Virus record (IMG/VR): IMGVR_UViG_3300035130_000222
Span: 1-50,270 of that record
Source: a virus
DNA length: 50,270 bases
Reading direction: 5' to 3' (one strand)
In this document: piece after piece, positions 11,215-50,270 of the stretch
Layout of the letters: each line of letters opens with the position of its first letter
Numbering within the stretch: position 1 is the stretch's first letter
Translations under genes and position numbers: made by a program
Notes under the pieces: generated by a model
The model's database searches: none
What the model was told of the DNA's origin: nothing
What the model saw: only the letters and a program-made list of their open reading frames with translations

Positions 11215-11222
11215 GTGATTAT

Positions 11223-14071: not shown

Positions 14072-14119
14072 GATGTATTTAATAGATTTTAAAAAAAATA
14101 TTTTTTATGAGTATATATT

Positions 14120-14593
14120 ATGGCTTTTGTAGATTTTAAATTAATAAAAAATAATTACGGATTATATGATATTAATTTTATAGATGGAGATATAGAAATA
14201 ACACAGGGATTTGAAACATCATTGCTAATGACTGTTTTATGTGAGAGAAGAGCATCAGCAAGTGAGATATCAATAGCACAAAAAAGACGTGGATGGTGGG
14301 GTAATGCATTTTTAGGATATAATAATTTTGAGCAAGGATCTAAATTATGGTTATTATCACAAGCAAGAGCTGATCAGTTAACACTTAATAATGCAAAAAC
14401 TTTTTTAAATAATGCGCTACAATGGTATATAACAGATAGTTTATTATCAAATTTTACAGTTGATACATCATATAATGCGCAAAAAGAATTATTAATAAAA
14501 ATTTCTTTAATAATTAGTAGCGATATTGTTCTGTCTAAATATTTTAAGTTGTGGCAAAATACTATACAAGAATTAGAAAATGATATTAATTAA
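14120..14593 (+). CDS. Mu gp46-like baseplate protein
   Basis: Motif GFETSLLMTVLCERRA ... RRGWWGN is typical of the phage GP46 family. Confidence 0.75.
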   Translation: MAFVDFKLIKNNYGLYDINFIDGDIEITQGFETSLLMTVLCERRASASEISIAQKRRGWWGNAFLGYNNFEQGSKLWLLSQARADQLTLNNAKTFLNNALQWYITDSLLSNFTVDTSYNAQKELLIKISLIISSDIVLSKYFKLWQNTIQELENDIN

Positions 14594-14668
14594 AAGATAT
14601 AAAATAAATATTTTTTTTATTAATATATTTTATTAATATAAGTTTATGAATTATATAAATATACAATA

Positions 14669-15985: not shown

Positions 15986-15994
15986 AAAATAGTA

Positions 15995-16636
15995 ATGGAA
16001 ATATTACCACAACAAACAACTTTTATTGTTAACACAGATGAGCAAATCACACAATCACTTGCTGATTATTTGCCAAATGATGATATTTTCAGATCAAAAA
16101 ATATACAAGGATCTAATTTAAGATCGCTTTTACAAGCATTTTCATCCGAATTTATGCGTGTTGAGGCAAAAATTAAAGAATTGGCAGACGAACACTATTT
16201 ACCTTACACATATAATTTAATTGATGAATGGGAAAGGCAATTAGGAATTCCTGATGAGTGTTTTAATCCTAAAAATAAATCAATTGAAGAGCGTAGGCAA
16301 TATGCAATTGCAAAATTTGCATTAATGAATTTGACATCAACACCAGATTTTATCGCGCTAGCTGATTTTTTTGGTGTCAGAATAGAGATATTAAACGGAT
16401 ATCAACATAGTAATTTTTTTCCGTTTACATTTCCAATTTATTTTTTTGGGTCAATTAAAGAAGCAAAATTTACAATGATTGTACATTTTCTTGACATAAA
16501 TAGACCGTCAAATGTATTCCCGTTGACTTTTCCCATAACTTTCGGTGAAGAAACGCTTGCTAATTTAATTTTATGCATTTTTAACAAATTAAAACCTGCA
16601 CCAGTCAAAATTGTAGCTAGATATAGAGATGATTAA
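15995..16636 (+). CDS. Mu gp48 / P2 gpI-like baseplate protein (DUF2313-type)
   Basis: Motif LIDEWERQLGIPDEC is typical of this family. Follows the J-like gene. Confidence 0.75.
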   Translation: MEILPQQTTFIVNTDEQITQSLADYLPNDDIFRSKNIQGSNLRSLLQAFSSEFMRVEAKIKELADEHYLPYTYNLIDEWERQLGIPDECFNPKNKSIEERRQYAIAKFALMNLTSTPDFIALADFFGVRIEILNGYQHSNFFPFTFPIYFFGSIKEAKFTMIVHFLDINRPSNVFPLTFPITFGEETLANLILCIFNKLKPAPVKIVARYRDD

Positions 16637-20321: not shown

Positions 20322-20522
20322 ATGTATTATAAAGTACCACAGCAAATTGTAGCAAAATTATTTGCTTATTTTAAAGAAGAAAAAAATCTGCCTAATATTT
20401 CATGGAGTGAGATACAGATTATATGTTCTAATTTTTTACCTTTGGAAAATGTTGAACAAGATAATAAAAATGACAAAAAAGGTATTTCTAACGCAGAAAA
20501 AATGAAAAATGGCAAAAGTTGA
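20322..20522 (+). CDS. Hypothetical small protein at the start of the lysis cluster
   Basis: Strong SD AAAGGAG. Overlaps the amidase start. Confidence 0.45.
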   Translation: MYYKVPQQIVAKLFAYFKEEKNLPNISWSEIQIICSNFLPLENVEQDNKNDKKGISNAEKMKNGKS

Positions 20523-20967
20523 ACAAATAATTGTACATTGTTCTGATAGTAGATTTGGTAATTCTCAAACAATTAGAGAATGGCATATTGCAAGAGGTTG
20601 GCGAACGATAGGGTATCATTTTGTTATATTAAATGGACAGATAACACCTGATTTTTATTTAGAATCGTTAAACGGATCAATAGAATGTGGTCGTATTTTA
20701 GATGGTGATAATTATTTATATTCATCTGAAATTGGTGCGCACACATTAGGATATAATAAAACAAGCATTGGTATTTGTTTAATTGGTATTAAAATTTTTA
20801 GCAAAAATCAAATTAATTCTTTATATAAGTTGTGTTCTGAATTAAAAGATCATTTTAAAATTCCAATTGATAAAATTATCGGTCATTATGAGGCAGAAAC
20901 AGCAAATGGTAAAACGTGTCCGAATATTGATATTGCTGATTTTAGAAATAATTTAACAAATTATTAA
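20509..20967 (+). CDS. N-acetylmuramoyl-L-alanine amidase endolysin (Amidase_2 / T7-lysozyme-like)
   Basis: IIVHCSDS ... GYHFVI ... GAHTLGYNKTSIGICLIG ... IIGHYEA ... KTCPN, i.e. the His/His/Cys zinc triad arrangement of T7 lysozyme. Confidence 0.9.
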   Translation: MAKVEQIIVHCSDSRFGNSQTIREWHIARGWRTIGYHFVILNGQITPDFYLESLNGSIECGRILDGDNYLYSSEIGAHTLGYNKTSIGICLIGIKIFSKNQINSLYKLCSELKDHFKIPIDKIIGHYEAETANGKTCPNIDIADFRNNLTNY

Positions 20968-24349: not shown

Positions 24350-25393
24350 TTAACCACAATCTTGTTCAAAAAACAATCTACTTTCTTCTGATAGTTGTTG
24401 TTTTACTTCTGGTTTTACTTCTGGTTTTACTTCTGGTTTTACTTCTGCTTTTTCATTTATATTTTTATCTGCATTATTTTTTGAATTATTTATAATGTTT
24501 TGATTAATATTTATAGATGCACTTTTTTGTTTTAAATCTTCTAGCAATGCTTTACTTTGAGTAATGTTTTCATTAAGTTGTTTTTTTTCATCTGTATCTG
24601 TAAGCGCATTTTTTACATTAATAAAATCTGATGATTTATCAACACCTGTTAATTCTAAATATTCATCATAAATTACTGCGCTATCACATTCAGAACTACT
24701 AGGGACATATTTTAAAATATGCCGTATTATTGATTTTAATGCCATTGCTTCGTAGCCAAATTGCCACGCCATCGGAACTTTTCCGCTTCTCTTTGTTGCT
24801 ATTGCTTTAAGTTTTTTAATATCTGCATTCCACAAATACCTTCTAAATTTATTATTATTTTTATTAGTACAAATTGCATAAACAGCAATAAGGTCACGTT
24901 CAGAGTCAAAATCATCAGGCTTAGGATAAGGCAAATGATGAATTGATGGTGTATCACCACTTTTAATTTTAAACTCGTCCCATGTATAAATGCAATCAAA
25001 TTCTATATTTTTTATGTATTTTGATCTATATGCAAGATCCAGCAATCCTTTGTACATTAATTGCAATTTACACTCATATACATTTGTTCTGTTATTTTTA
25101 TAACGAGCAAAAAAAGCTTTTCCAAACGAATCACCAGGTTCAATTCCCCATTCTGCGGCTTTTAAAATTGATTTTTCAACGCTAAGTAATGTACATTTAA
25201 GCAAATTATCAGCATCTTCATTCATCACAAAAGCTGTTTGACAGACGCGTAAAAATCTCTCAGTAGAATCTTTTCTTTTACGCATAAATTCAGGTAACGC
25301 TTTTTCTACTTGAGCTATAAATGGTTTATCATGAGTTATTGCAGTTTGTAATATATCAAATGATCTAACTGGTGCGTTTCTATCAATACTCAT
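24350..25393 (-). CDS. recT: RecT-family single-strand annealing recombinase
   Basis: RecT-like core (CTLLSVEKSILKAAEWGIEPG ... LQLMYKGLLDLAYRS). C-terminal EVKP x4 repeat. An exonuclease gene lies upstream in the same operon. Confidence 0.85.
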   Translation of the reverse strand: MSIDRNAPVRSFDILQTAITHDKPFIAQVEKALPEFMRKRKDSTERFLRVCQTAFVMNEDADNLLKCTLLSVEKSILKAAEWGIEPGDSFGKAFFARYKNNRTNVYECKLQLMYKGLLDLAYRSKYIKNIEFDCIYTWDEFKIKSGDTPSIHHLPYPKPDDFDSERDLIAVYAICTNKNNNKFRRYLWNADIKKLKAIATKRSGKVPMAWQFGYEAMALKSIIRHILKYVPSSSECDSAVIYDEYLELTGVDKSSDFINVKNALTDTDEKKQLNENITQSKALLEDLKQKSASININQNIINNSKNNADKNINEKAEVKPEVKPEVKPEVKQQLSEESRLFFEQDCG

Positions 25394-26468: not shown

Positions 26469-27446
26469 CTATTTCAGTTTATTATAAAATCGTCTATATT
26501 TTATTGTATAACTACAATCTCTTGCAACATCAGGATATTTTTCTTTTAATTTATTATTATCAATTCTTTCGCTTGTAATTGTTGGACACGTAAATATTGT
26601 TTGATGCGCAAGATTATTAATGATTTCAGCATCTTCAATGTTTAACAACAATTCTTTTTTATATTTTTTTATTTTTCTCTCTAAATCATTATATTGTTTT
26701 TGTAATTCAGTCATTTCTATATATTTATCAATGATATCATTATTTATAATGATTTCTTTTTGTTTTATTGCATTTTTGTAAAGTTCTTTTACATCATCAT
26801 AAGTTTGCGGCTTAGGAGGAATCTTTTTTTGTATATGATTAACCCAGAAATTTTTTGCATTTTCAATTATATGATTTTCAAAATCATGATCACGATTATA
26901 TTGATAAACACACATCGGCAAATGATTACCAAATCTCACTAAAATATATGCTTTTGTTGAATTATAAATTGCGCAATAATAAGCAACTTGAAATAAATAT
27001 TGTGCAGGAATTTGTCCTCGTTTTTGTTTTAATTGATTATTGCTGATCAAATTATAATTGATATCATTAACAGGATCGCCCCACTCGTCATGTGTTCTGC
27101 ATATTGATTTTGCTTCTAATATATAGATTTCATCAAGATCAAACGCAATTCCATCGACATTTGCAGCAAGAAAATCATATTTATCGTGATATCGTATTGG
27201 TACATTTTGTTTTACTTTTAAGCAGATTTCGCGCTCAAATTTTGATAGTAAGATAGGTTCATCTTCATTACCCCAATCAATATAATTATTATCAATTGTA
27301 TTTCCGTTTTGTTTTATTTCATCTGATGTTTTTTCATTGTAAATATCAAGAGCTGTTTTCCATTTGTTATATCCAAAAATCGCGCTTATATCTGATCCAC
27401 CAATATAATTTTTTCTATCTTTAAGTTGTTGTTCAGTTAATGCCAT
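26469..27446 (-). CDS. YqaJ / lambda-exonuclease-family 5'-3' exonuclease (PD-(D/E)XK)
   Basis: N-terminal RKNYIGGSDISAIFGYNKWKTALDIY is typical of the YqaJ viral recombinase family. Paired with RecT. Confidence 0.85.
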   Translation of the reverse strand: MALTEQQLKDRKNYIGGSDISAIFGYNKWKTALDIYNEKTSDEIKQNGNTIDNNYIDWGNEDEPILLSKFEREICLKVKQNVPIRYHDKYDFLAANVDGIAFDLDEIYILEAKSICRTHDEWGDPVNDINYNLISNNQLKQKRGQIPAQYLFQVAYYCAIYNSTKAYILVRFGNHLPMCVYQYNRDHDFENHIIENAKNFWVNHIQKKIPPKPQTYDDVKELYKNAIKQKEIIINNDIIDKYIEMTELQKQYNDLERKIKKYKKELLLNIEDAEIINNLAHQTIFTCPTITSERIDNNKLKEKYPDVARDCSYTIKYRRFYNKLK

Positions 27447-27994: not shown

Positions 27995-29224
27995 TTATAT
28001 TTCGCTTAATAAAATAATATTATCTTGTTTTTTATCAAATTTATTATTATCAACTTGTGCTGTAATTATTTGAAATCCTGCTTGTAATAAATCATTTATA
28101 AGTTTTGTTTGATGTTGCTCATCTAATAATTCAAAATCATCGATAAATCTTACTTTTAAATCTGGGTTTTTTGCAACATATAAATTTGCAACAATTAACT
28201 CAAGCTCACCTTTGCTAAAATGAGGCTCTTTGATCGGTCGATTTTTTAATAACAATTGTCCTTTATCATCAATAGATAAATCATTGAAACCAAGATTAAA
28301 TGATTGTATATAGTCAAGACGCTCTTGTTGTATTTTATTTTGTTGATCTTTATTTTCATACAAAGATTTTTCAAGTTCGATTTTTTTTGTTTGTTTTTCA
28401 TTAAAACGTTCATATTCCAATGCTTTATAATTAATTTCTTCTGAATTTTTAATTTTTTCATCAATAGCTTTTGCTTCTATAATTATATCATTAACTTCAT
28501 CATTGAGCGTTCTTAAATCAGGAAATTCTTTAATTTTATTATTAATTTCTTTTAATTCATTTTCTAATGCTCGTTTTTTTGCAAAAGTATTTTCAATTTC
28601 TTTTAAAAATTTATCTTTTCCTAAATATATGTTTCTTAAATTATTTTTCTTTTCAATTAATTCTGAAATAGATATTTTTTCAACTTTTTCTACATATTTT
28701 ATTTCACCTAAATTTTTTAAATCACGATTAATTAAAGTATATTCATTCTTTAAATTTTCTATTTTATTATCGAATTTTTCTGTATTAATACCTAATAAAA
28801 GTGCTTGTTGTTTACTATCTAGTTGAGTAAAGTTTTTTGTACTTAAAAAAGCAACTGATAATAAATTATTAAGCCAATCATTACTTAATTCATAATCATC
28901 AGGCGCTTGAAATGTGATTTTATTTGAGGCATCTGAAATTTTATTTTTAACAATAATTTCAGCATTTTTTTCTGTATCTAAAAGTGTTAATTCAATATCA
29001 GCACTTTTGGCACCATTTGCAATAAATCTGAATCGTTCACCGATTAGATTATCGTTTTTTGATTTTTCAGCAATTCCTTTGAGACATGCCCAAATTGCTG
29101 TCAATCCTACTGTTGTTTTTCCGGAGCCATTCATTCCGACAAGATGTGTAATATTGTTATTAAATTCACATGTAAAATCTGTGAATTTTGCGAAATTTTT
29201 AAGTTTTAGATTTTTGATCTTCAT
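27995..29224 (-). CDS. SMC/Rad50/RecF-like ATPase with a central coiled coil
   Basis: N-terminal LKLKNFAKF ... LVGMNGSGKTT (Walker A), a long Lys/Glu-rich coiled-coil middle, and C-terminal VRFIDDFELLDEQH (Walker B-like). Confidence 0.75.
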   Translation of the reverse strand: MKIKNLKLKNFAKFTDFTCEFNNNITHLVGMNGSGKTTVGLTAIWACLKGIAEKSKNDNLIGERFRFIANGAKSADIELTLLDTEKNAEIIVKNKISDASNKITFQAPDDYELSNDWLNNLLSVAFLSTKNFTQLDSKQQALLLGINTEKFDNKIENLKNEYTLINRDLKNLGEIKYVEKVEKISISELIEKKNNLRNIYLGKDKFLKEIENTFAKKRALENELKEINNKIKEFPDLRTLNDEVNDIIIEAKAIDEKIKNSEEINYKALEYERFNEKQTKKIELEKSLYENKDQQNKIQQERLDYIQSFNLGFNDLSIDDKGQLLLKNRPIKEPHFSKGELELIVANLYVAKNPDLKVRFIDDFELLDEQHQTKLINDLLQAGFQIITAQVDNNKFDKKQDNIILLSEI

Positions 29225-29600
29225 TTGTGATTAACTCCTTTATTTCTAAAATTTTGTCAACAAAAAATTGCATTAAATATGCAATCCATTCTTGCGTATT
29301 TATATTTAACTCAAGCTCATAATCATCAATTATAAACATTAACAGATGAATGCATTCATGCACAATAATCGACATTTTTACATTAGTGTCAAAAAACACA
29401 TAATATTCACGATTATGCGCAAAACAAAAAGCTTCTGTATCTAATAAATTTATTTTTTCTTTTGAAAGAAATTCATATGTTGATGTTGCAAATTCTTTCC
29501 ATGTATCGCAAAAATAAACATTTATCCTGCATCCGTACATCTCAACTTTAAATGTTTTTTTATAGTTAAATGTACATTCATATTTATCTATTTTATTCAT
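29199..29600 (-). CDS. Putative HExxH zinc-metallopeptidase-like protein, paralogue of 39028-39465
   Basis: HECIH motif followed by QEWIAYL. The same architecture occurs in the second copy (HESIH ... QEPFAYL). Confidence 0.5.
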   Translation of the reverse strand: MNKIDKYECTFNYKKTFKVEMYGCRINVYFCDTWKEFATSTYEFLSKEKINLLDTEAFCFAHNREYYVFFDTNVKMSIIVHECIHLLMFIIDDYELELNINTQEWIAYLMQFFVDKILEIKELITNEDQKSKT

Positions 29601-30944: not shown

Positions 30945-31946
30945 ATGACAAATATGGCTAAAAAAAGATCAATAAAACCAGAATTTTGGGCGTCTGAACA
31001 AGTGATGAATTGTTCAAAAAATGCACGTTTATTATTCATTGGATTATGGAATTTTTGTGACGATAATGGAATACATCAGTACTCGTTTAGATGCATTAAA
31101 GCAAAAATTTTTCCAGCTGATTCTGATACTGAATCAGAAATTGAACAATTGCTGAATGAGCTTGAAAAAAACAATTTGATCAAAATATATACTGTTAATG
31201 ATAAAAAATATTTAAAAATTTCTGGCTGGCATCATCAAAGTATAGCACGTCCATTTTATAAATTTCCAGATGAAGACGGGAATAAGCCATTGAATAAATG
31301 GGAAAAAATCGAAAATATTCATGAGCAGTGCTCAAGCAGTGCACAAGCAGTGCCTGAGCAGTGCTCAAGCAGTGCACAAGCAGCGCCTGAGCAGTGCTCA
31401 AGCAGTGCACAAGCAGCGCCTGAGCAGTGCTCAAGCAGTGCACAAGCAGTGCCTGAGCAGTGCTCAAGCAGTGCACAAGCAGTGCCAAAGCACTGCGGTA
31501 ATGGTTATGGTTATAATACAGATCTAAGTTTTAAACATAACTCAAATGTAAATAATCAAGATAAAAATTTTAAAGAGAGTAAAAACGCGCGTGTACGCGC
31601 TTCTTTTACTGTTTTAAAAAACAACAGCGAATTTATTGCAAAATTTGATAAATTTTATGCTGTGTATCCTTTGCACAAATCAAAAGAGGGAGCGCTAAAA
31701 GCATTTGCTCAAATAAATCCTGACAATGATCTACTCGATAAAATTTTAATTGGAGTAGAAAATTATAAACAAGAAATTATTTTTATGAATATTGATAAAA
31801 AATATATTAAACATCCGTCGACATGGCTAAATCAAAAATGCTGGCTTGATGAAATTGATTTAACGCAACAACAATCACAACAAAAAAAATTAACTAATCA
31901 ACAACAGTTTGTTGCTAATTTAAAAAAAATAGCAGGAGAAAATTAA
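30945..31946 (+). CDS. Replication initiator / replisome organiser (lambda O-like role), containing tandem repeats
   Basis: N-terminal IKPEFWASEQVMNCSKNARLLFIGLWNFCDDNG and C-terminal FYAVYPLHKSKEGALKAF ... HPSTWLNQKCWLDE are patterns seen in phage replication-initiation proteins. An alternative start at 30954 has better SD spacing. Confidence 0.65.
   Translation: MTNMAKKRSIKPEFWASEQVMNCSKNARLLFIGLWNFCDDNGIHQYSFRCIKAKIFPADSDTESEIEQLLNELEKNNLIKIYTVNDKKYLKISGWHHQSIARPFYKFPDEDGNKPLNKWEKIENIHEQCSSSAQAVPEQCSSSAQAAPEQCSSSAQAAPEQCSSSAQAVPEQCSSSAQAVPKHCGNGYGYNTDLSFKHNSNVNNQDKNFKESKNARVRASFTVLKNNSEFIAKFDKFYAVYPLHKSKEGALKAFAQINPDNDLLDKILIGVENYKQEIIFMNIDKKYIKHPSTWLNQKCWLDEIDLTQQQSQQKKLTNQQQFVANLKKIAGEN
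31323..31487. repeat. Five tandem 33-bp repeats, i.e. 15 copies of AGCAGTGC at 11-bp phasing. Candidate origin iterons inside the initiator gene
   Basis: Read directly. GC-rich relative to its surroundings. Encodes EQCSSSAQA(V/A)P x5. Confidence 0.85.
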
Positions 31947-31949: not shown

Positions 31950-32429
31950 ATGGAAAATTTAAAAAAACGTACATTAAAAATATTTGCAACGTTAACAGCA
32001 ATTTACGGAAGTGCATGGTGCAATCAATTTAGCGACGAAAGTATTTTAAATTTAGCAATAAAAATTTGGACTAGTGAATTAAAAAAATTTAACGACAACG
32101 AAATTAAATTTGCAATTAAAAAATGCATGCAACATGATTATCCACCAACTCTTCCAGTTTTTGCTAAAATGTGCAGCATCGAAAAATCAGATTTAAACTT
32201 AACAACTGCAGAAATATCATTTTTGACGCATGACAAAACGTATGCAGAAATTGTAAAAAAAATTGACAAGTGGAACTTTGTGCGTTTATCAGCAGATGCT
32301 GCGTTAAAAATCTACAAAATTTTATATCGCGATCACATTGATAAAAAAATAAACAAAATAAACGAAAATTTTACAGAAAAAATTGAATTTATTAAACAGC
32401 GCATATCTGATCAAAAAATGATTTTGTAA
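31950..32429 (+). CDS. Lambda P-like replication protein (helicase-loader candidate)
   Basis: The pattern IFATLTAIYGSAW ... IKIWTSELKKFNDNEIKFAIKKCMQHDYPPTLPVFAKMC parallels the lambda P N-terminal region (QLLATFPASL ... RRQWVLAF ... RPFLPSPGQFVAWC). Follows the O-like gene. Confidence 0.5.
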   Translation: MENLKKRTLKIFATLTAIYGSAWCNQFSDESILNLAIKIWTSELKKFNDNEIKFAIKKCMQHDYPPTLPVFAKMCSIEKSDLNLTTAEISFLTHDKTYAEIVKKIDKWNFVRLSADAALKIYKILYRDHIDKKINKINENFTEKIEFIKQRISDQKMIL

Positions 32430-32716: not shown

Positions 32717-32795
32717 TTGACAATATCAGTTAAGTTGATACAATGTAATTAAGCTCATAAATAATTATGAGCTGATTAAAAAAGGAGTACAAATC
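32717..32795 (+). promoter_or_regulatory. Early promoter cassette 1: TTGACA - 16 nt - TGaTACAAT, then a 22-bp palindrome AGCTCATAA-ATAA-TTATGAGCT at about +1, then SD AAGGAG
   Basis: Read directly. The same cassette recurs at 37207-37285 and, without the -35, at 38791-38861. Confidence 0.7.
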
Positions 32796-32975
32796 ATGAA
32801 AAAACTAACACAAGCAGAAATCGATGCGAAGTTAAAAAACGATGATAAAGATTGGCGAAAGTTGGATTTAAGTGGTGCTGATTTAAGTGGCGCTGATTTA
32901 AGAGAGGCTGATTTAAGAGAGGCTGATTTGTGGAATGCTGATTTAAGTGGTGTTAAAAAAGGAGATAACGCATGA
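32796..32975 (+). CDS. Pentapeptide-repeat protein 1 (59 aa; leader plus about 5 repeats plus tail). Not in the supplied ORF track
   Basis: The ATG follows the cassette SD. Translation: [63 protein letters not shown] overlap with the next gene. Confidence 0.75.
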   Translation: MKKLTQAEIDAKLKNDDKDWRKLDLSGADLSGADLREADLREADLWNADLSGVKKGDNA

Positions 32976-34051
32976 AAAAACTAACACAAGCAGAAATCGA
33001 TGCGAAGTTAAAAAACGATGATAAAGATTGGCGAAAGTTGGATTTAAGTGGTGCTGATTTAAAGGGAGCTGATTTAAAGGGAGCTGATTTAAGTGGCGCT
33101 AATTTAACTGGAATTGATTTAAGTGGCGCTAATTTAGTGTGCGCTAATTTAAGGGGAACTAATCTAAGAGAAGCTAATTTAAGAGAAGCTAATTTAAGAG
33201 GAGCTAATTTAATGCGCGCTGATTTAAGTGGCGCTGATTTAAGTGGCGCTGATTTAAGTGGCGCTAATTTAGTGTGCGCTAATTTAAGGGGGACTAATCT
33301 AAGAGAAGCTAATTTAAGAGGAGCTAATTTAATGCGCGCTGATTTAAGTGGCGCTGATTTAAGTGGCGCTGATTTAAGTGGAACTGATTTAAGAGAGGCT
33401 GATTTAAAGGAAGCTGATTTAAGTGGAACTGATTTAAGAGAGGCTGATTTAAAGGGGGCTGATTTAGAAGGCGCTGATTTAAGTAATGCTGATTTAAAGT
33501 GCGCTGATTTAAGTAATGCTGATTTAAAGTGCGCTGATTTAAGTAATGCTGATTTAAATGAAGCTGATTTAATGCGCGCTAATTTAAGCTGTGCTTATTT
33601 AAAGGGAGCTGATTTAAGTGGAACTGATTTAAGAGAGGCTGATTTAAGAGAGGCTGATTTAAGAGATGCTGATTTAAGAGATGCTTATTTAAGATGGGCT
33701 AATTTAAGTTGTGCTGATTTAAGTGGCGCTAATTTAAGTGGCGCTGATTTAAGAGATGCTGATTTAAGTGGCGCTGATTTAAAAGAGGCTAATTTATTTG
33801 GCGCTGATTTAAGGGAGGCTAATCTAAGAGAAGCTAATTTAAGTGAAGCTGATTTAAGGGGCGCTGAGTTAAGTTGGGCTAATTTAAGGGGCGCTGAGTT
33901 AAGTTGGGCTAATTTAAGGGGCGCTGTTTTAAGAAAGGCTTTTTTAAAAGGGGCTAATTTAAGTTGCGCTGATTTAAGAGAGGCTGATTTAAGAGATGCT
34001 GATTTGTGGAATGCTGATTTAAGTGGTGTTAAAAAAGGAGATAACGCATGA
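32972..34051 (+). CDS. Pentapeptide-repeat protein 2 (359 aa)
   Basis: Continuous A(D/N)L(S/R/K)x pentapeptides. Shared leader and tail. ATGA overlaps on both sides. Confidence 0.85.
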
Positions 34052-34482
34052 AAAAACTAACACAAGCAGAAATCGACGAAAAATTAAAAAACGATGATAA
34101 AGATTGGCGAAAGTTGGATTTAAGTGGTGCTGATTTAAGATGTGCTAATTTAAGTTGCGCTGATTTAAGATGTGCTGATTTAAGAGGAGCTAATTTAATG
34201 CGCGCTGATTTAAGTTGCGCTAATTTATTTGGCGCTGATTTAAGGGAGGCTAATCTAAGAGAAGCTAATTTAAGTGAAGCTGATTTAAGGGGCGCTGAGT
34301 TAAGTTGGGCTAATTTAAGGGGCGCTGAGTTAAGTTGGGCTAATTTAAGGGGCGCTGTTTTAAGAAAGGCTTTTTTAAAAGGGGCTAATTTAAGTTGCGC
34401 TGATTTAAGAGAGGCTGATTTAAGAGATGCTGATTTGTGGAATGCTGATTTAAGTGGTGTTAAAAAAGGAGATAACGCATGA
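34048..34482 (+). CDS. Pentapeptide-repeat protein 3 (144 aa)
   Basis: As above. The C-terminal 83 aa are identical to the end of protein 2. Confidence 0.85.
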
Positions 34483-34928
34483 AAAAACTAACACAAGCAG
34501 AAATCGACGAAAAATTAAAAAACGATGATAAAGATTGGCGAAAGTTGGATTTAAGTGGTGCTGATTTAAGATGTGCTAATTTAAGTTGCGCTGATTTAAG
34601 TGGTGCTGATTTAAGTGGTGCTGATTTAAGAGATGCTGATTTAAGAGATGCTGATTTAAATGGGGCTGATTTAGAAGGCGCTGATTTAAGGCGCGCTAAT
34701 TTAAGAGATGCTGATTTAAGAGAGGCTGATTTAAAGGGCACTGATTTAAAGAGCGCTAATTTAAGGGGGACTAATCTAAGAGAAGCTAATTTAAGTTGCG
34801 CTGATTTAAGAGAGGCTGATTTAAGCGGAGCTGATTTAAGAGAGGCTAATTTAAGCGGAGCTGATTTAAGAGAGGCTGATTTGTGGAATGCTGATTTAAG
34901 TGGTGTTAAAAAAGGAGATAACGCATGA
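34479..34928 (+). CDS. Pentapeptide-repeat protein 4 (149 aa)
   Basis: As above. Confidence 0.85.
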
Positions 34929-35509
34929 AAAAACTAACACAAGCAGAAATCGATGCGAAGCTAAAAAACAATGATAAAAACTGGCAAAAGTTGGATTTAA
35001 GTGGTGCTGATTTAAGAGGAGCTAATTTAATGCGCGCTGATTTAAGTGGCGCTAATTTAAGTGGCGCTGATTTAAGAGATGCTGATTTAAGAAAGGCTTA
35101 TTTAAGATGGGCTGATTTAAGCGGAGCTGATTTAAGCGGAGCTGATTTAAGAGATGCTGATTTAAGGCGCGCTGATTTAAGAGAGGCTGATTTAAAGGGC
35201 GCTGATTTAAAGGGCGCTGATTTAAGGAGCGCTGATTTAAAGTGCGCTAATTTAAGAGATGCTGATTTAAAGGGCACTGATTTAAGTGGCGCTAATTTAA
35301 GAGATGCTGATTTGAGAGAGGCTGATTTATATGGCGCTTATTTAAGATGGGCTAATTTAAGTTGCACTGATTTAAATGGCGCTGATTTAAGGAGCGCTGA
35401 TTTAAGAGATGCTTATTTAAAGGGCGCTGATTTAAGAGAGGCTGATTTAAGAGAGGCTGATTTGTGGAATGCTGATTTAAGTGGTGTTAAAAAAGGAGAT
35501 AACGCATGA
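34925..35509 (+). CDS. Pentapeptide-repeat protein 5 (194 aa)
   Basis: As above. The leader variant is NNDKNWQKLD. Confidence 0.85.
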   Translation: MKKLTQAEIDAKLKNNDKNWQKLDLSGADLRGANLMRADLSGANLSGADLRDADLRKAYLRWADLSGADLSGADLRDADLRRADLREADLKGADLKGADLRSADLKCANLRDADLKGTDLSGANLRDADLREADLYGAYLRWANLSCTDLNGADLRSADLRDAYLKGADLREADLREADLWNADLSGVKKGDNA

Positions 35510-35994
35510 AAAAACTAACACAAGCAGAAATCGACGAAAAATTAAAAAACGATGATAAAGATTGGCGAAAGTTGGATTTAAGTGGTGCTGATTTAAGATG
35601 TGCTAATTTAAGTTGCGCTGATTTAAGAGAGGCTGATTTAAAGGAAGCTGATTTAAAATGGGCTAATTTAAGTTGTGCTAATTTAAGTTGCGCTGTTTTA
35701 AGGGAGGCTTTTTTAAAAGGGGCTAATTTAAGTGGAACTGATTTAAGAGAGGCTGATTTAAGAGAGGCTGATTTATGGGGAGCTAATTTGGAATTCGCAA
35801 ATTTAAGGCGCGCTAATTTAAGAGATGCTGATTTAAGCGGAGCTGATTTAAGCGGGGCTAATTTAAGCGGAGCTGATTTAAGAGAGGCTGATTTAAGATG
35901 TGCTGATTTAAGCGGAGCTGATTTAAGAGAGGCTAATTTAAGCGGAGCTGATTTAAGAGAGGCTGATTTAAGTGGTGCTAATTTAACTGAATAG
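35506..35994 (+). CDS. Pentapeptide-repeat protein 6 (162 aa), lacking the shared C-terminal tail
   Basis: As above. Ends in ANLTE, followed by a normal SD for 36014. Confidence 0.85.
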   Translation: MKKLTQAEIDEKLKNDDKDWRKLDLSGADLRCANLSCADLREADLKEADLKWANLSCANLSCAVLREAFLKGANLSGTDLREADLREADLWGANLEFANLRRANLRDADLSGADLSGANLSGADLREADLRCADLSGADLREANLSGADLREADLSGANLTE

Positions 35995-38861: not shown

Positions 38862-39035
38862 ATGAAGTATATAACACAACATGCAGACAAAGAAACTGCG
38901 CTAGCTGCTGTAAAACAAGATGGGTGGGCACTCCAATTTGCGAGCGGCGAGCTAAAAAATGATAAAGATTTTTTCTTTGATTTAATAAATTTTGTTAAAA
39001 CATATAGCATTGAAAAGGAAATTAAAAATGACTAA
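38862..39035 (+). CDS. Small DUF4116-type repeat protein (57 aa). Not in the ORF track
   Basis: The ATG follows the cassette SD. TQHADKETALAAVKQDGWALQFASGELKNDKDF matches the AVKQ(D/N)G.AL.(Y/F)AS..L..D repeat of DUF4116. Confidence 0.6.
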   Translation: MKYITQHADKETALAAVKQDGWALQFASGELKNDKDFFFDLINFVKTYSIEKEIKND

Positions 39036-39465
39036 ACGACTTACTTTAAAAGATTTTAAACATATTAAAATAGATATTTATGATTTTGATCTCTATATCT
39101 TATTTAATAAAAATTGGAAAAATTTATTTGCTAATTTTCTCGAAGAAAATCATAATTATTATTTAGATATAGATAAATGTGGATATGCACTAACAACTTT
39201 TATTAAGGATATTCATAGAATATATTTAATTTTTAATGAAAATCCAAACGCGAATTCAGTGATACATGAAAGCATTCATGCTGCTCTTTATATTATTTAT
39301 CAACTTGACATTAATCTTGATAAAAATAATCAAGAACCATTCGCATATTTAGCTTCTTTCATTGCAACGAAAATTTGTGAAATTTCTTTTAATATTCATA
39401 ATAATAAATCTTTTTTTACAAAAGTTCTTTCAAACTTAAAAACAGGAGACAAGAATGATGACTAA
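39028..39465 (+). CDS. Putative HExxH metallopeptidase-like protein, paralogue of 29199-29600
   Basis: HESIH ... QEPFAYL. Start moved to the ATG with SD AAGGA that overlaps the upstream stop. The tracked ORF begins at a TTG at 38992. Confidence 0.5.
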   Translation: MTKRLTLKDFKHIKIDIYDFDLYILFNKNWKNLFANFLEENHNYYLDIDKCGYALTTFIKDIHRIYLIFNENPNANSVIHESIHAALYIIYQLDINLDKNNQEPFAYLASFIATKICEISFNIHNNKSFFTKVLSNLKTGDKNDD

Positions 39466-40886: not shown

Positions 40887-41246
40887 TCATAATATTTTTG
40901 TTATATATTGACAATAAAATTGATCTCGATCATTTTTATCTATGCAAGAACTATCACAATAATACATTATCTCTTTATTATATTTATATCGAAATTTAAA
41001 AATTGTAATAAATATTATATATGTCTTAAAAAATCTTTCATTTAAATTTTCATAACTTGCAATAGGAATTTTGATTTCTTTTTTATATGCAAGATCATTT
41101 TTTAAATTAATAAAACCAACAAAATTATTATAATATTTATCGAAAAGTAAAAACCGCTTTCCGTCAAATAATAAACGTTTATTACTAAATGGAAGTAATG
41201 GCAATACAGAATCAATTATTTTTTTGTTATAAGTTATTGTTTTCAT
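40887..41246 (-). CDS. Hypothetical protein in the leftward island
   Basis: Co-oriented with 41313-41819. No motif recognised. Confidence 0.45.
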   Translation of the reverse strand: MKTITYNKKIIDSVLPLLPFSNKRLLFDGKRFLLFDKYYNNFVGFINLKNDLAYKKEIKIPIASYENLNERFFKTYIIFITIFKFRYKYNKEIMYYCDSSCIDKNDRDQFYCQYITKIL

Positions 41247-41312: not shown

Positions 41313-41819
41313 TTAAGAAATAATTACACCAATAACAATAAAAATAATCATTAATACAACAATAATCGCACAACCTGATCCAATTAAGCCAAATCCTGTT
41401 TTTAACATATTTTTTCTAAATTTTTTAAAGCAACTTTCTTTTTTTTGAACTAAATAAGAATTTTGACAAAGATAACTGTTGAGCAAATAATATACATTTG
41501 TTTTAAAATTATCTATATCTGCTTTTTTTGCTAGATTAAAAATATATAATTCGATTTGTTTATCATTGTTAAAATAATGTACTAAAGATAAACTATCAAA
41601 AGGCTCGTTTTTTGCCAAAAAATATTTAATTCCCGCAAAAATCGCGCGATTTATTTTTGTTGAAAAATGATATATGTCAATCGGTAATACACCATGTTTG
41701 CGTAAATAATTAGTAAATTCATCACGAATTTCAAAAAGCAATGAATTATCTGTTAATAATGATCCGAGAACTGATTGTTCAATATCCACATCCACAATAT
41801 TATAAATAGTCATAGTCAT
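41313..41819 (-). CDS. DnaB-helicase N-terminal-domain-only protein with a C-terminal transmembrane anchor
   Basis: VDIEQSVLGSLLTDN ... FSTKINRAIFAGIKYFLAKNEPFDSLSLVHYF parallels E. coli DnaB IEAEQSVLGGLMLDN ... FYTRPHRHIFTEMARLQESGSPIDLITLAESL. No ATPase motifs. The C-terminus GLIGSGCAIIVVLMIIFIVIGVIIS is a TM helix. Confidence 0.65.
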   Translation of the reverse strand: MTMTIYNIVDVDIEQSVLGSLLTDNSLLFEIRDEFTNYLRKHGVLPIDIYHFSTKINRAIFAGIKYFLAKNEPFDSLSLVHYFNNDKQIELYIFNLAKKADIDNFKTNVYYLLNSYLCQNSYLVQKKESCFKKFRKNMLKTGFGLIGSGCAIIVVLMIIFIVIGVIIS

Positions 41820-41934
41820 GTTTCCTGCATAAATTAAATATTATATTAACAAGAGCCATAACAATAGCCATCGCGATAGTTATAGCTAGAGCAGCAAATG
41901 TCAAGATTTATTTTAACACAAAGACATAAAAATG

Positions 41935-41967
41935 CAAGAAAATCACAAGAAAATCACAAGAAAATCA
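41935..41967. repeat. Three tandem 11-bp repeats CAAGAAAATCA
   Basis: Read directly. Lies in the divergent intergenic region between the leftward island and the packaging operon. Confidence 0.85.
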
Positions 41968-42195
41968 ATTGGGCAATCTTTTTGTGACAATTGTGCTGAC
42001 GCAGCATTTATTAAAAATACGGCGTCGTTACTTTTGATTAAAAAATGGTCAGTTAGCAAATAAAAGTATAATATTATACAGTAAAAAATCAATAAAAATT
42101 TGTTTTATTTTTTTAAAAAATATATTATTCTTATTGTTAAATTTATGACAATAATTATCCTGTTTTATTTTTAAACAACTAAAGCGGGTGATAAC

Positions 42196-42433: not shown

Positions 42434-43597
42434 GTGAAATTTGTTGAATATTCATCTATTAAAAATATCAATGATAGTAAATTTATTGATAAAATTTATA
42501 ATCAATGCTATGGTGATAATTTATATATTGTTTTAGAAAAAGCGCATGGCGCTAATTTTGCAATTTATTTTGACGGTAAGCAATTCAGATGCGCGTCAAG
42601 AGATAGATTTCTTAATTTTATATTAAATTTAGATGATGAAAACATTTTACAACTAGATGAGTTTAATCGAGTTTGTGAAAATTCTGAAGGTTTTTTTGGA
42701 TATAAATATATTTTATATTTTATCTTGCCTAGAATTGTAGAGTATTATAAATTTTTAAAAAATTTTGAAAAAATAGATCAGCTTATTATTTATGGAGAAT
42801 TAATAGGAGCAAATTATCAGCACGATGATTTTAAAATTATAAATAAAAAATATAATCTGAGAAAAGTTCAAAAAGGTGTATTTTATTCTCCAGTTCCAAC
42901 TTTTTATATTTTTGATATAAAAATCAATAATAAATATTTAGGATATTATAAGTTTGAGAATGTTTGCGCTAGATTTTTTTCAAAAAAATTTAAAATTAAT
43001 GATAATGATAATGAGTGTCAAAAAATATTTAAAAAATATAGTATTTGTTATGCATATAAATTATTTAGCGGATCATTGAAAGATTGCATCAAGTTTAATA
43101 ATGAATATGAATCATCAATACCTAGCATTCTTGGATTGCCAAAAATTGATAATAATATATGCGAAGGTAATATTATTAAGCCTGTTAATGATCTATATTT
43201 AGCATGTGGATCTAGAATTATATTAAAAAATAAAAATATTAAATTTGCTGAAAAACAAAAAGAGAAAAAAAATAGTATAAGAATAGAAGATATATCAGAA
43301 CAAGCTCAAAATTTATTAGATATATTATTAACATATGTTAATATGAATAGATTAAATAATGTGATATCGCATATTGGAGAAGTTACAATTAATGATTTTG
43401 GTAATTTGATGAAAGAATTAAATAAAGATATTTTAGATGATTTTTATTATTATTGTGCTGAGAATAATTTTGATTATCTTACAAAAGATGAACAAAAATT
43501 TTTACGCAAAGAATTAAATAGAAATTGTGCAAATTTAATAAAAGAATATTTTACGAGTAATAAACAATTAATTTTAAAACAAAGACAGCAGAAGTGA
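42434..43597 (+). CDS. Rnl2-family ATP-dependent RNA ligase, GTG start
   Basis: Nucleotidyltransferase motifs in order: I LEKAHGANF, III IIYGELIGANY, IV CEGNIIKP, V RIILKNKNIKF. The lysine position (about aa 36) is like T4 Rnl2. Confidence 0.75.
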   Translation: MKFVEYSSIKNINDSKFIDKIYNQCYGDNLYIVLEKAHGANFAIYFDGKQFRCASRDRFLNFILNLDDENILQLDEFNRVCENSEGFFGYKYILYFILPRIVEYYKFLKNFEKIDQLIIYGELIGANYQHDDFKIINKKYNLRKVQKGVFYSPVPTFYIFDIKINNKYLGYYKFENVCARFFSKKFKINDNDNECQKIFKKYSICYAYKLFSGSLKDCIKFNNEYESSIPSILGLPKIDNNICEGNIIKPVNDLYLACGSRIILKNKNIKFAEKQKEKKNSIRIEDISEQAQNLLDILLTYVNMNRLNNVISHIGEVTINDFGNLMKELNKDILDDFYYYCAENNFDYLTKDEQKFLRKELNRNCANLIKEYFTSNKQLILKQRQQK

Positions 43598-43603: not shown

Positions 43604-44878
43604 ATGCGAATAGAACAAGTTGACATAAAAAAAATAAAACCATATGAGAATAATCCAAGAATCAATAAAAAATCTATTGATAAGGTTGCTAATAGTTTAT
43701 TAGCATATGGTTGGAGACAACCAATCGTTGTTGATAAGAATATGATTATTGTTGCTGGTCATACAAGATTTTCTGCTGCAAGGCAATTAAAATTAAATAA
43801 AGTGCCTGTGCATATCGCAGATAATCTTAATGAGCAACAGATAAAAGCATACAGATTGGCTGATAATAGATCTGCTGATGACTCAGAATGGAATTTTGAT
43901 GCATTAAAAATAGAGCTAGAATCTTTGATTGATTTTGATCCACAAGTTGATTTAGCTATTACAACATGTTTTGATCAAAGCGAAATAAATTCTATTATGG
44001 AAGATGATAAATTAAAAACTGATCTAGATAAAAATGATGAGATTTTATTTGAAAATAATAGTTTTGATCTTGATAAAATTGTAACTAAAGAAGGTATGGT
44101 TTGGGTGTTGGATAAACATAAAATAATTTGTGGTGATTCAACTAAAAAAGAAACATTTACTAAATTATTTAATAACTCAAAAAATGATAATATAGATAAA
44201 GCAGATATGATATTTACTGATCCTCCATATAATGTTGATTATGAAGGGCATAAAAAAATAAGAGATAAAATATCTAATGATAAAATGACAGATGATAATT
44301 TCTTTTGTTTTTTAAAAAATGTTTTTGATAATATATATAATTTTATAAAAGATGATGCATCATTATATATTTGTTATTCAACTTCTGAAACATCAAATTT
44401 TTTAAAAGCATTAGATAACAATAAATTTAATATTATAAATATTATTATATGGGCTAAAAATCATTTTGTTATAAGTTTTGGTAGGTATAATAGACAATAT
44501 GAGCCTATTATTTATGCTTATAAGAAAAATAAAACAGATAAATGGTATGGTGATAATACACAATGTGATTTATGGAATTTTAATGTTTATAAAAGTTCTA
44601 GTTTACATCCAACGATGAAACCAGTTGCTTTAATAAAAAAATCGTTAATCAATAGTAGTAAAAATAATAATGTTATTTTAGATCCATTTTTAGGTAGCGG
44701 ATCAACATTAATTGCATGTGAAGATATGAGTCGTATATGCTATGGAATTGAATTAGAACCTAAATATGTAGATACTGTTATTCAAAGATGGCAATTTTTA
44801 ACAAAAAAAGATGCTATGTTAGAAAATGGTCGATCATATAATCAATTAAAGGATATGTTGAAAAATGACAAGCGGTGA
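43604..44878 (+). CDS. ParB-like nuclease domain fused to a beta-class N6-adenine/N4-cytosine DNA methyltransferase
   Basis: N-terminal IKPYENNPR ... VAGHTRFSAARQL (ParB-N), then TDPPYN (motif IV) before DPFLGSGST (motif I). Confidence 0.8.
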   Translation: MRIEQVDIKKIKPYENNPRINKKSIDKVANSLLAYGWRQPIVVDKNMIIVAGHTRFSAARQLKLNKVPVHIADNLNEQQIKAYRLADNRSADDSEWNFDALKIELESLIDFDPQVDLAITTCFDQSEINSIMEDDKLKTDLDKNDEILFENNSFDLDKIVTKEGMVWVLDKHKIICGDSTKKETFTKLFNNSKNDNIDKADMIFTDPPYNVDYEGHKKIRDKISNDKMTDDNFFCFLKNVFDNIYNFIKDDASLYICYSTSETSNFLKALDNNKFNIINIIIWAKNHFVISFGRYNRQYEPIIYAYKKNKTDKWYGDNTQCDLWNFNVYKSSSLHPTMKPVALIKKSLINSSKNNNVILDPFLGSGSTLIACEDMSRICYGIELEPKYVDTVIQRWQFLTKKDAMLENGRSYNQLKDMLKNDKR

Positions 44879-45236
44879 ACACCCAAATTGTAGACGTGCT
44901 GACAAAAAAAATTTAAAACCTTTTAAAAAAGGTGAGAATATAACGCACGGAAAAACTGGAAAAAGAATATCAACACGATTAAAAGAAATCCTAAATAAAA
45001 ATTTAACGCTAAAAAATCCTTTTACTCATGAAATGGAAAAAAAAACAGGCAGTGAATGGGTTGCGTTAATGATAGTTGCGCATGCGTTAAAAGGTAATTC
45101 AAAAGCAATGGAAATTTTGCTTGATCGCACAGAAGGAAAAGTATTAAGCAAAGTTGATATGTCAGTATCTGAATCAATGTCAATTCAGATAATTAAACAG
45201 CAAATACGTTTAAAAAATGATAAAAACTGCAAATGA
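44865..45236 (+). CDS. Terminase small subunit candidate
   Basis: Immediately upstream of, and overlapping, the large terminase gene. Basic N-terminus with NLKPFKKGENITHGKTGK. Confidence 0.45.
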   Translation: MTSGEHPNCRRADKKNLKPFKKGENITHGKTGKRISTRLKEILNKNLTLKNPFTHEMEKKTGSEWVALMIVAHALKGNSKAMEILLDRTEGKVLSKVDMSVSESMSIQIIKQQIRLKNDKNCK

Positions 45237-46710
45237 ATTTAAAAATGAATTTAATTGTAGTCAGGACATATATGATGCAGCAATTTATGCGATACGTCTT
45301 GAAGATAGCTTTTATGAATTTTATAAAGAAGCATGGTGTGTTTTGCATGATAAAAGTATTCCATTAATTAAAATCCCATTAGTTAAAATTTTATGCGATC
45401 ATTTACAGACTTTGTACGATTGGCATGCTGGTAAAATAACTGATATAACATTTAACCGTATAGCGATTGCAGTCCCGCCTGGTTTATCAAAAAGTCTAAG
45501 TGTTTGCGTTGCATTTCCTGCGTGGGTATGGACAAAGGAACCATCTGCTAAATTTATGAGTGGTTCTTACAATGAATCATTTGCAACAAGAGATGCTCGT
45601 CGCACAAGAGATTTAATTAAAAGTGAGTGGTATCAATATTTGTGGGGTGATGTATTTAAAATTAAAGACGATCAAGATTCAAAAAAATATTATGAGAATG
45701 ATTGCGGCGGAGAAAGATTAGCATTTGGAACAAGAGGAACATTTACAGGTATCAGATGTGATTTTGCATTGTTTGACGATCCGTTAAAAATTCAAGACGC
45801 ATATTCAAAACTTGAGCGAGAAAAAATAGGAAAACTTGTTGGAAATGCTCATACAAGATTTAAAAACCCACAAACTGGAGTAATTGTAGTTATACAACAG
45901 AGATTACATGTTGATGACCCGATAGGGAGGCTTTTAAATAAAAAAAATGAAAAATGGGATTATTTGTGTATGCCAATGGAATGTGACCCATCAATAAGAT
46001 GCAAGACTCAAATTTTTGAAGATAAAAGAAAAGATGGTGAATGTTTGTGGCCTGAAAGATTCACAAAAGATTTTTTAAAAGCTGAAAAGGAAAGCATGGG
46101 ATCTCGTGATTATAATGCTCAAATACAACAACATCCAGAAAGTGAAAGCGGAAGCATTATTCATCGCGAATGGTTTAGATATTACAAGGAGTTACCTGCT
46201 GAACGTAAATTTAGAATACAAGCATATGATACAGCTTTTAAAATAAAAAAGACAAGCGATTATTCATCATGCATAACAATAGATTATATACCTCCGTATT
46301 TTTACATTGTCGGATATTGGCGCGAAAAAGTTGAAATGCCAGAATTAAAACGAAAAATACAAAACTTATATGCTAAATATAACCCTGATCAAGATATTTT
46401 AGAAGACAAGGCATCTGCACCGTCAGCTGTTCAAGAGTTAAAAAGATATACAACAATTCCGTTTAAGTTAATTAACCCACAAGGAAATAAAGAGTCAAGA
46501 TGTTATGCTGTTAGTCCAACTTTTGAAGCTGGAAAAATATTATTTCCTGATGTGTCATTTTACCCAGAAGCTGCTGAATGGCTTATTGATTTTGAAGATC
46601 ATCTTGTAAGATTTCCTAGCGAAACACATGATGACGATGTTGACGCACTAACATTGGGAATAATTTATCTTAAAGATAAATTTAAGCAACCAAAATTATA
46701 TTCTCTTTAA
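45217..46710 (+). CDS. Terminase large subunit
   Basis: Walker A-like VPPGLSKS, Walker B-like CDFALFDDP, and the C-terminal nuclease motif HDDDVDALT. Followed by the portal gene. Confidence 0.85.
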   Translation: MIKTANEFKNEFNCSQDIYDAAIYAIRLEDSFYEFYKEAWCVLHDKSIPLIKIPLVKILCDHLQTLYDWHAGKITDITFNRIAIAVPPGLSKSLSVCVAFPAWVWTKEPSAKFMSGSYNESFATRDARRTRDLIKSEWYQYLWGDVFKIKDDQDSKKYYENDCGGERLAFGTRGTFTGIRCDFALFDDPLKIQDAYSKLEREKIGKLVGNAHTRFKNPQTGVIVVIQQRLHVDDPIGRLLNKKNEKWDYLCMPMECDPSIRCKTQIFEDKRKDGECLWPERFTKDFLKAEKESMGSRDYNAQIQQHPESESGSIIHREWFRYYKELPAERKFRIQAYDTAFKIKKTSDYSSCITIDYIPPYFYIVGYWREKVEMPELKRKIQNLYAKYNPDQDILEDKASAPSAVQELKRYTTIPFKLINPQGNKESRCYAVSPTFEAGKILFPDVSFYPEAAEWLIDFEDHLVRFPSETHDDDVDALTLGIIYLKDKFKQPKLYSL

Positions 46711-46798: not shown

Positions 46799-48223
46799 AT
46801 GAAATTAAAAAATTTTTTTAAAATTCCTTTTTTTAAAAATTCAAAAAATAAAAGTAACAAAAATAATAAAAATATTATTGATATTGATTTATCAGAGACA
46901 TGTCCATCAACTTACAGAAGGCAATCATATATCGATTGGCTTATTTGTAAAAATGAAACGCAATTAGCTGCAACAACAGCAATTAAATATTTTTTCATGT
47001 GCGCTCCGTTATTTGACGGTATAGATAGAATTTCTCAAGCAATTTCTGAAATTAAACCACTTGTTTATGATATGCGACTCAAAAAATTTATTTTAGATCA
47101 TCCGTTAAATAAATTATTACAAAAACCTAACTATACAATGAATGGCGCAGAATTTATGTACGCAATATCAACGTTTATGTTGTTGACAGGCAACAATTAT
47201 ATGTTTGGTGATGGAATTAACAAAAATAAACCTCCTATGCAATTATTTTTACGCCCACCTCAAGCTGTTGATTATTTTTTAGGAACAGATGGACAGATTA
47301 ATTCTTACACAGTTCAATTAATGAACAAATTAACACAATATCAAAAAATAGTTGATATAAATTATGGATTTAGATATATAAATGAGACAAATAATATCAC
47401 ATCTGAATTATTTCATTTTAAAAATTTTAACCCAGATTGTACATTATTTAATCTCAAAGGAAATTCAGTGCTAAATTCGATTTATTACGAAATTGAACAA
47501 TATATCGCATCAGGGAGGCATAATTTATCGTTGCTTAAAAGAGGTACAACAATCAGCGGTGTTTTTTTCAGTGAAGATGATTTGTCAGACAATGCATTTG
47601 AGCAACTTAAAGCACAAATCAACGAATACTATTCTGGAGATCAAAATGCAGGAAGACCATTTTTGGCAGTTGGAGGGTTAAAATTTCAACCGAATCAACA
47701 ATCAAATAAAGATATGGATTTTAATGCGTTAACAAAAAATGTTACTGCAACTATATATAATATATTGCGCATTCCGTTGCCATTAATTGCATCTGATACA
47801 ATGACGCTTGCAAACCTTGAAGCGTCAATGACAATTTTTTATAAAAATGGTGTGTTGCCGTTGGTAAAGCGTATTTACGCTAATCTAACACAAGCTTTGC
47901 TCTCAAAATACCCAAACTCAGAAAATTTAATAATTTGGTACAATGCTAACGATATTCCAGCGCTGGAAAGTGAAATTATAGAAAATGTAAACAAAAAGAA
48001 GGATTTGGGCGTTTTAACTGCTAACGAATTAAGAGATGAGCTAGGTAGAGATCCGTTAAACGGGGGTGACGATCTATATCAACCTGCCAGCAACGTGCCA
48101 TATGCTAGCAAGACAAACGACATATTAGATGTTCAAGACAATAAACCTGATGAGTCAAATAAACCAAAAATTGATCAAAATAAACAACCGTCTGATGACG
48201 AACAAGGAAGCAATGATGCTTAA
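46799..48223 (+). CDS. Portal protein (HK97-type)
   Basis: Size, position and the central conserved region (LLKRGTTISGVF ... NAGRPFLAVGGLKFQP). Confidence 0.8.
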   Translation: MKLKNFFKIPFFKNSKNKSNKNNKNIIDIDLSETCPSTYRRQSYIDWLICKNETQLAATTAIKYFFMCAPLFDGIDRISQAISEIKPLVYDMRLKKFILDHPLNKLLQKPNYTMNGAEFMYAISTFMLLTGNNYMFGDGINKNKPPMQLFLRPPQAVDYFLGTDGQINSYTVQLMNKLTQYQKIVDINYGFRYINETNNITSELFHFKNFNPDCTLFNLKGNSVLNSIYYEIEQYIASGRHNLSLLKRGTTISGVFFSEDDLSDNAFEQLKAQINEYYSGDQNAGRPFLAVGGLKFQPNQQSNKDMDFNALTKNVTATIYNILRIPLPLIASDTMTLANLEASMTIFYKNGVLPLVKRIYANLTQALLSKYPNSENLIIWYNANDIPALESEIIENVNKKKDLGVLTANELRDELGRDPLNGGDDLYQPASNVPYASKTNDILDVQDNKPDESNKPKIDQNKQPSDDEQGSNDA

Positions 48224-50082: not shown

Positions 50083-50270
50083 CATTATTTTCACGATAAT
50101 CTTTCCTTGTTTTAACGAGAGGTCAAAAAGCTTACTATGTAATCGTATATTGACCTCTCAACAACTTTAATTTTTTCATTATTTTCACGATAATCTTTCC
50201 TTGTTTTAACGAGAGGTCAAAAAGCTTACTATGTAATCGTATATTGACCTCTCAACAACTTTAATTTTTT
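50083..50270. repeat. Two full copies of the 94-bp tandem repeat (50083-50176 and 50177-50270)
   Basis: Read directly. Continuous with the copies at 1-135 if the contig is circularised. Confidence 0.9.

Follow-up and report, generated by a model that had tools for sequence, protein, structure and literature searches.

The 168-residue protein P0001, encoded by an uncultured bacteriophage on the minus strand at 41313..41819 of the window (the whole stretch of 50,270 nucleotides that was analysed), is a diverged DnaB N-terminal domain (NTD) by sequence profiles and a modelled structure, and it carries a predicted C-terminal transmembrane (TM) helix in place of a helicase motor. This anchored layout, seen once and with no relative in the databases searched, is a new architecture of a known domain class. 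At a probability of roughly 35%, we favour the reading that P0001 is a putative membrane-tethered mimic of the helicase collar, which would capture a partner of the DnaB NTD and interfere with the replication of the host or of rival phages.

Sequence evidence for a DnaB N-terminal domain

Four routes (Pfam, NCBIfam, hhalign and structure) agree in assigning P0001 to the DnaB NTD. The Pfam profile PF00772 matched residues 10-103 over profile positions 5-91 of 103, with an E-value of 1.9e-9 and a score of 37.9 bits (cut-off 23), and PHROG 19, a DnaB-like helicase family, matched at 1e-5. All eight NCBIfam matches were to DnaB families, with a phage DnaB model first, at scores of 12-23 bits against cut-offs of 385-884 that belong to full-length models. 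Comparison by hhalign with a reference profile of 33 proteobacterial DnaB N-termini, built from fetched genomes, gave a probability of 97.2% and an E-value of 4e-11 over residues 10-99, and it is at about residue 99 that sequence homology to DnaB ends. The best match in a sequence search of the PDB was Vibrio cholerae DnaB, with marginal E-values.

Residues 14-25, EQSVLGSLLTDN, form the EQSVLG..L.DN signature, the most conserved motif of the DnaB NTD, and the DnaB core residues F52 and D75 are also kept. The domain is nevertheless strongly diverged, scoring 38 bits compared to 75-135 bits for the NTDs of helicases. No match to PF03796 (DnaB_C/RecA) was found in P0001 or anywhere on the contig, and Pfam searches up to an E-value of 10 returned no DnaG C-terminal family for P0001.

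Predicted fold and missing elements

Modelling with AF2 from the single sequence of P0001 gave a pLDDT of 45, while modelling with an alignment of DnaB N-termini gave a pLDDT of 79.3, with values above 90 over most of residues 10-110. The latter model consists of five head helices, a long helix (residues 102-141) and, after a turn of low confidence, a final helix (residues 151-167). Its fit to DnaB is partly circular, as the input alignment was made of DnaB domains: the top Foldseek matches, both in the PDB and among viral structures, were all DnaB helicases, and VIA-align superposed residues 3-135 on residues 24-149 of E. coli DnaB (7t22_A) with a Z score of 14.5 and an rmsd of 2.5 A over 120 residues. 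An alignment-free model from the ESM Atlas (pTM 0.63) gave TM-scores of 0.64-0.67 to clusters of DnaB NTDs over residues 3-136/145. Across DnaB NTDs, the VIA-align Z scores were 11.5-14.5, compared to 4.8-8.8 for the C-terminal helicase-binding domains of DnaG (5z51, 4ehs, 6cbr and 2lzn), which share the fold superfamily of P0001 and are the natural partners of the DnaB collar. As modelled, P0001 is nearer to the DnaB NTD than to these homologous DnaG domains.

The globular head of the domain is encoded at 41511..41792 on the minus strand (residues 10-103), and the long helix, encoded at 41397..41516 on the same strand (residues 102-141), overlies the last part of the head and the first hairpin helix of DnaB, up to residue 149 in the E. 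coli protein. P0001 thus has the same head and long first hairpin helix as the DnaB collar (PF00772; PDB 7t22, 1jwe and 1b79; V. cholerae 7qxm), and differs from it in several respects. Helix 2 of the head is followed by a 12-residue insertion, and the head lacks two segments conserved in canonical DnaB, the GG loop and PSxANxxxYA. The helical hairpin, from whose two helices the NTD dimer of helicases builds its four-helix bundle, is incomplete, with the first helix only; the TM helix replaces the second and leaves no room for a second soluble helix. The chain ends at residue 168 with neither a linker helix nor a RecA-type ATPase, and P0001 therefore cannot unwind DNA.

C-terminal membrane helix

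The predicted TM helix, FGLIGSGCAIIVVLMIIFIVIGVII, spans residues 143-167 (41319..41393, minus strand) and is followed by one residue. The maximum of the Kyte-Doolittle hydropathy in 19-residue windows was 3.41, over residues 149-167, and all windows before residue 141 were at or below 0.7, with no N-terminal signal or TM segment. A basic juxtamembrane patch, KKESCFKKFRKNMLK, occupies residues 126-140 at the end of the long helix, and the 20 residues before the TM helix hold seven K/R and one D/E. Such a hydrophobic tail was present in only one of the 48 phage ORFs of at least 100 aa, that of P0001. The protein is predicted to be tail-anchored in the inner membrane with its DnaB-like part in the cytoplasm, a topology based solely on hydropathy and the positive-inside rule.

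The original prediction, made before any database search, had described a DnaB NTD with the EQSVLG..L.DN signature, no RecA-type ATPase and a terminal TM helix. All three elements were borne out, the last of them by hydropathy, and the profile search and structure comparison that had been named beforehand as one of the refuting tests both support the DnaB NTD. The functional proposals of that prediction (a decoy for DnaG or DnaB, exclusion of other phages, recruitment to the membrane) are reasonable as hypotheses.

Gene model and genomic island

The P0001 gene starts with an ATG at 41819 and ends with a TAA at 41313-41315. A second ATG at 41813 gives a 166-aa form (P0002), which is the start chosen in the public protein set. 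A Shine-Dalgarno-like AGGAAA, read from the sequence at 41821-41826 on the minus strand, precedes the two ATG codons, with spacings of 1 nt and 7 nt, respectively. The reading frame is open for 175 codons in DNA of 21-24% G+C, where about 9% of random codons would be stops. When the surrounding 2 kb were shuffled 500 times, the open length averaged 65 codons and never exceeded 126. The gene also follows the order GC1 > GC2 > GC3, a pattern shared by the genes for terminase, capsid and initiator. The open length far beyond that of the shuffles and the GC content by codon position indicate that the frame is coding and did not stay open by chance. We regard it as a genuine accessory gene of a bacteriophage.

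Downstream of the P0001 gene, and in the same orientation, lies a 119-aa ORF (40887..41246, minus strand) that yielded no family match and no confident fold. None of the PADLOC defence-system models matched P0001 or this neighbour. The two genes form a leftward island flanked by plus-strand genes, as originally predicted, directly upstream of the block that encodes the Rnl2 ligase, the ParB-methylase and the terminase. The island lies in the stretch of lowest GC in the phage genome (21%). Its accessory position is indicated by this low GC and by the distance of the P0001 gene from the replication module, which lies 9 kb away on the opposite strand.

A divergent intergenic region (41820..42195) separates the island from the rightward late block. 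Upstream of the P0001 gene, it contains three exact tandem copies of CAAGAAAATCA at 41935-41967 and 2.1 copies of a 12-bp unit at 41847-41871, repeats that may be putative operator or iteron-like sites. A promoter and terminator scan returned 17 sites compared to 21.8 expected, with no terminators and no convincing promoter in 41820..42195.

Phage genome and replication module

The ends of the window are identical, with positions 1-127 repeated directly at 50144-50270. This 127-bp terminal repeat indicates that the window is the complete genome of a myovirus, about 50.1 kb in size and either circular or terminally redundant. It encodes a head protease and capsid (285-2749), a tail sheath (7010-8569), a tape measure and baseplate (9757-16636) and an Amidase_2 endolysin, an N-acetylmuramoyl-L-alanine amidase (20509-20967). 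RecT (24350-25393) and RecE/YqaJ (26469-27446) are encoded on the minus strand, followed on the plus strand by a replication initiator (30945-31946) and a P-like helicase loader (31950-32429), the latter with moderate support (phrog_109, E-value 2.5e-7). A pentapeptide-repeat array lies at about 32972-35994, and beyond the island are the Rnl2 ligase (42434-43597), the ParB-methylase (43604-44878), the large terminase (45217-46710) and the portal (46799-48223). PHROG scans, which covered most ORFs of at least 90 aa and missed six short ORFs, found no helicase, primase or polymerase gene. This agrees with the earlier claim of a lambda P-like loader in a phage without a helicase of its own, and the combination of an initiator and a P-like loader with no helicase found implies that the phage uses host DnaB.

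A role of P0001 in lysis was rejected, as the tail operon closes with the amidase and adjacent genes at 20.5-21.9 kb. It is also unlikely that the P0001 gene was left in place by a swap of replication modules, since 9 kb and a change of strand separate it from the module and nothing helicase-like follows downstream.

Elsewhere in the genome, a sigma-70 promoter at 32717-32795 (TTGACA-16-TGaTACAAT, TG-extended), followed by a palindrome and an AAGGAG ribosome-binding site, precedes the pentapeptide-repeat array. An ABC/AAA_15 ATPase (27995-29224, minus strand) resembles PtuA, GajA and AriA in its N-terminal part only, with a best E-value of 5e-14. Its gene overlaps a phrog_1365 gene (29199-29600, minus strand), a second paralogue of which lies 10 kb away (38992-39465, plus strand), and the ATPase and the phrog_1365 protein may form a putative phage-borne defence or counter-defence pair.

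Rarity and relatives

Apart from itself, P0001 had no homologue in collections of 5.8 and 1.8 billion proteins (phmmer-type searches, representative set), and none was found in viral and genome contigs; three other contigs encode a protein identical to P0001. Searches of phages by tblastn with P0001 gave marginal matches only, to full-length helicases. A scan of IMG/VR seeded with an alignment returned 15 relatives, all of them helicases of 419-518 aa and none with a TM segment; the nearest relatives are the NTDs of these full-length phage helicases, with 25-33% identity over the head. Among the other short PF00772 proteins retrieved, a non-exhaustive survey made up mostly of partial helicase fragments, a TM segment was present in 0 of 57, and the maximum hydropathy was 1.59. 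In 192 genomes of Legionellales and Pseudomonadota, PF00772 occurs almost only once per genome, in full-length frames.

Clusters of the ESM Atlas show that stand-alone phage DnaB-NTD proteins of about 100-117 aa exist. These proteins are motor-less, like P0001, and are its nearest Atlas clusters, with a feature score of 0.87 that is below the reliable range. They are shorter than P0001, with a head only by length and no known membrane anchor, and sequence kinship between them and P0001 was not detectable.

Proposed function and alternative readings

Phages disable or borrow the host replisome by means of small proteins. The DnaB NTD fold dimerises within the NTD tier, docks the C-terminal domain of primase and contacts DnaA, and the reading of P0001 as a collar mimic is the most economical because these are the known jobs of the fold. 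The partner captured by P0001 would be a protein that usually docks on the N-terminal tier of DnaB, and it would be kept at the membrane; the candidates are the C-terminal domain of DnaG, the NTD of DnaB subunits or an initiator. Such binding would disturb the assembly of the host's primosome or that of a competing phage, and meanwhile the initiator and P-like loader of the phage would bring host DnaB to the phage DNA. If P0001 clusters in the membrane, perhaps through contacts between its TM helices, this would offset the low affinity that a collar domain on its own is expected to have. Slightly less probable, and put forward tentatively, is the proposal that P0001 represents a new kind of phage factor for replication interference or hijack, one that would imitate the docking tier of DnaB and sequester primase or DnaB subunits at the membrane. 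We know of no phage protein that copies the docking tier of a helicase and fixes the copy to the membrane.

Precedents exist among phage proteins: Ped1 of PaoP5 binds the host helicase DnaB (PMC13728149), and 77ORF104 binds the helicase loader DnaI (PMC4887207). Both are soluble proteins with folds unrelated to that of P0001 and do not imitate the helicase itself, and they show that phages target this step of host replication. The simple version of the collar-mimic reading, in which P0001 is a decoy for DnaG, is weakened because P0001 has one hairpin helix only and has lost two head segments. The main caution comes from Helicobacter pylori, where a DnaB NTD equal in extent to that of P0001 showed very weak binding to the C-terminal domain of DnaG, whereas the NTD with the full linker bound well (PMC2761005). 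That construct (PDB 3gxv), which dimerises, matches the soluble part of P0001 in extent and differs from P0001 in being an artificial, soluble fragment. Conservation cannot vouch for the function of P0001, as the protein is a singleton. Owing to the doubts over binding, an exapted scaffold and a neutral leftover, both described below, are serious rivals of the collar-mimic reading.

P0001 could instead be a positive tether that recruits host primase or the DnaB-loader complex to a membrane site of phage replication, a role suggested by analogy that we regard as rather unlikely. The anatomy of P0001 would fit this role equally well, and the phage must borrow host DnaB and DnaG. Membrane-anchored phage replication has a precedent in p1 and p16.7 of phi29 (PMC4974454), small membrane proteins that fasten parts of the replication machinery to the membrane, as P0001 putatively would. 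The likeness is one of analogy only: their folds are unrelated to that of P0001, and p16.7 binds DNA and the terminal protein and is anchored at its N-terminus. The doubts over binding competence raised by the lost segments and by the H. pylori NTD apply equally to a tether. Interference was ranked above the tether because the P0001 gene is an isolated accessory gene, placed outside the replication operon in a separate, oppositely oriented low-GC island, and because no related phage has such a gene, which argues against a core replication function.

A target outside the replisome is given a similarly low probability. P0001 may be an exapted scaffold, with the DnaB-NTD fold built into a membrane protein that would act, for example, in exclusion, in an abortive response or in signalling together with the 119-aa neighbour. 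The strong divergence of the domain, with its head insertion and two deletions, is consistent with such reuse, as is the pairing of the gene with an ORF that matches no family, whereas the retention of EQSVLG..L.DN, F52 and D75 speaks against it. Neither island gene matches a defence-system model, which also argues against this role, and the lysis cassette, with its amidase, lies elsewhere.

Lambdoid replication modules swap between the loader and helicase genes, and P0001 might be a neutral leftover, the recombination-truncated 5′ end of a phage DnaB gene with a chance hydrophobic tail and no selected function. We consider this less likely again. The singleton status of P0001, the full-length phage helicases that supply its nearest relatives and the lowest GC of the genome in this region would all be expected of such a remnant. 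On the other hand, the gene is not beside the replication module and has no trace of a linker or RecA domain downstream, and an unselected frame of 168 codons would stay open with a probability of about 8e-8 at 9% stops per codon. The tail is composed as a genuine TM helix would be and is flanked by a basic patch, unlike random AT-rich coding, and head residues were modelled at pLDDT above 90, which are further points against a remnant.

Helicase-primase coupling is considered an antibacterial target. If, as the collar-mimic reading holds, P0001 binds primase or DnaB, the protein would offer a small, naturally occurring means of probing or blocking this coupling, and the known single-domain copies of host replication proteins in phages, whose number is growing, would gain a member. 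Should it bind neither, it would be an example of a helicase fragment reused as a module of a membrane protein.

Host of the phage

The contig had been binned with a 1.06-Mb archaeal genome that contains Ribosomal_S28e, MCM (300 bits) and a ThrRS with an archaea-specific editing domain. No DnaB was found in this genome, and P0001 is the sole match to PF00772 in the whole bin. This binning, of which the original prediction had no knowledge, makes the host part of the question. The bacterial-type DnaG of the archaeal bin is complete (595 aa, with Zn ribbon, DNAG_N and Toprim) and is encoded a few kb from the ThrRS (contig C10, L116:4541-6328 (+) and L116:11685-13421 (+), respectively). The 240-aa C-terminal region of this DnaG matched nothing, and no similarity to the DnaB NTD or to solved helicase-binding domains was found in it.

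Other features of the contig point to bacteria. The N-terminal 110 residues of the initiator share 50-58% identity with prophage-like genes in Legionella/Legionellales, Coxiellaceae and other Gammaproteobacteria, and the best matches of TerL are to phages of Proteobacteria. The GC content of the phage is 28.4%, compared to about 32% for the bin, and the tetranucleotide correlation of the phage contig to the bin is weaker than that among the other contigs of the bin. Searches for spacer-like or att-like sequences common to the phage contig and the rest of the bin returned low-complexity A/T matches only. By these sequence criteria, the host of the phage is most likely a bacterium and the contig mis-binned, since the phage has a sigma-70 promoter with AAGGAG, an amidase that acts on peptidoglycan, a DnaB-dependent loader and proteobacterial matches of its initiator and TerL. 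The same features, the deviating composition, the lack of shared spacer-like sequence in the search and the absence of similarity to a helicase-binding fold in the archaeal DnaG make it very improbable that the DPANN-type archaeon of the bin is the host and that P0001 is a viral adaptor capturing the bacterial-type DnaG of that archaeon, a reading suggested by the binning with a genome that has archaeal markers and no DnaB, by the complete DnaG near an archaea-type ThrRS and by the sole PF00772 match. A homologue of the same phage initiator domain was also present in JBEKIG010000076.1, a 1670-bp contig of a Nitrososphaeria archaeon MAG, which is probably another phage fragment binned with an archaeon.
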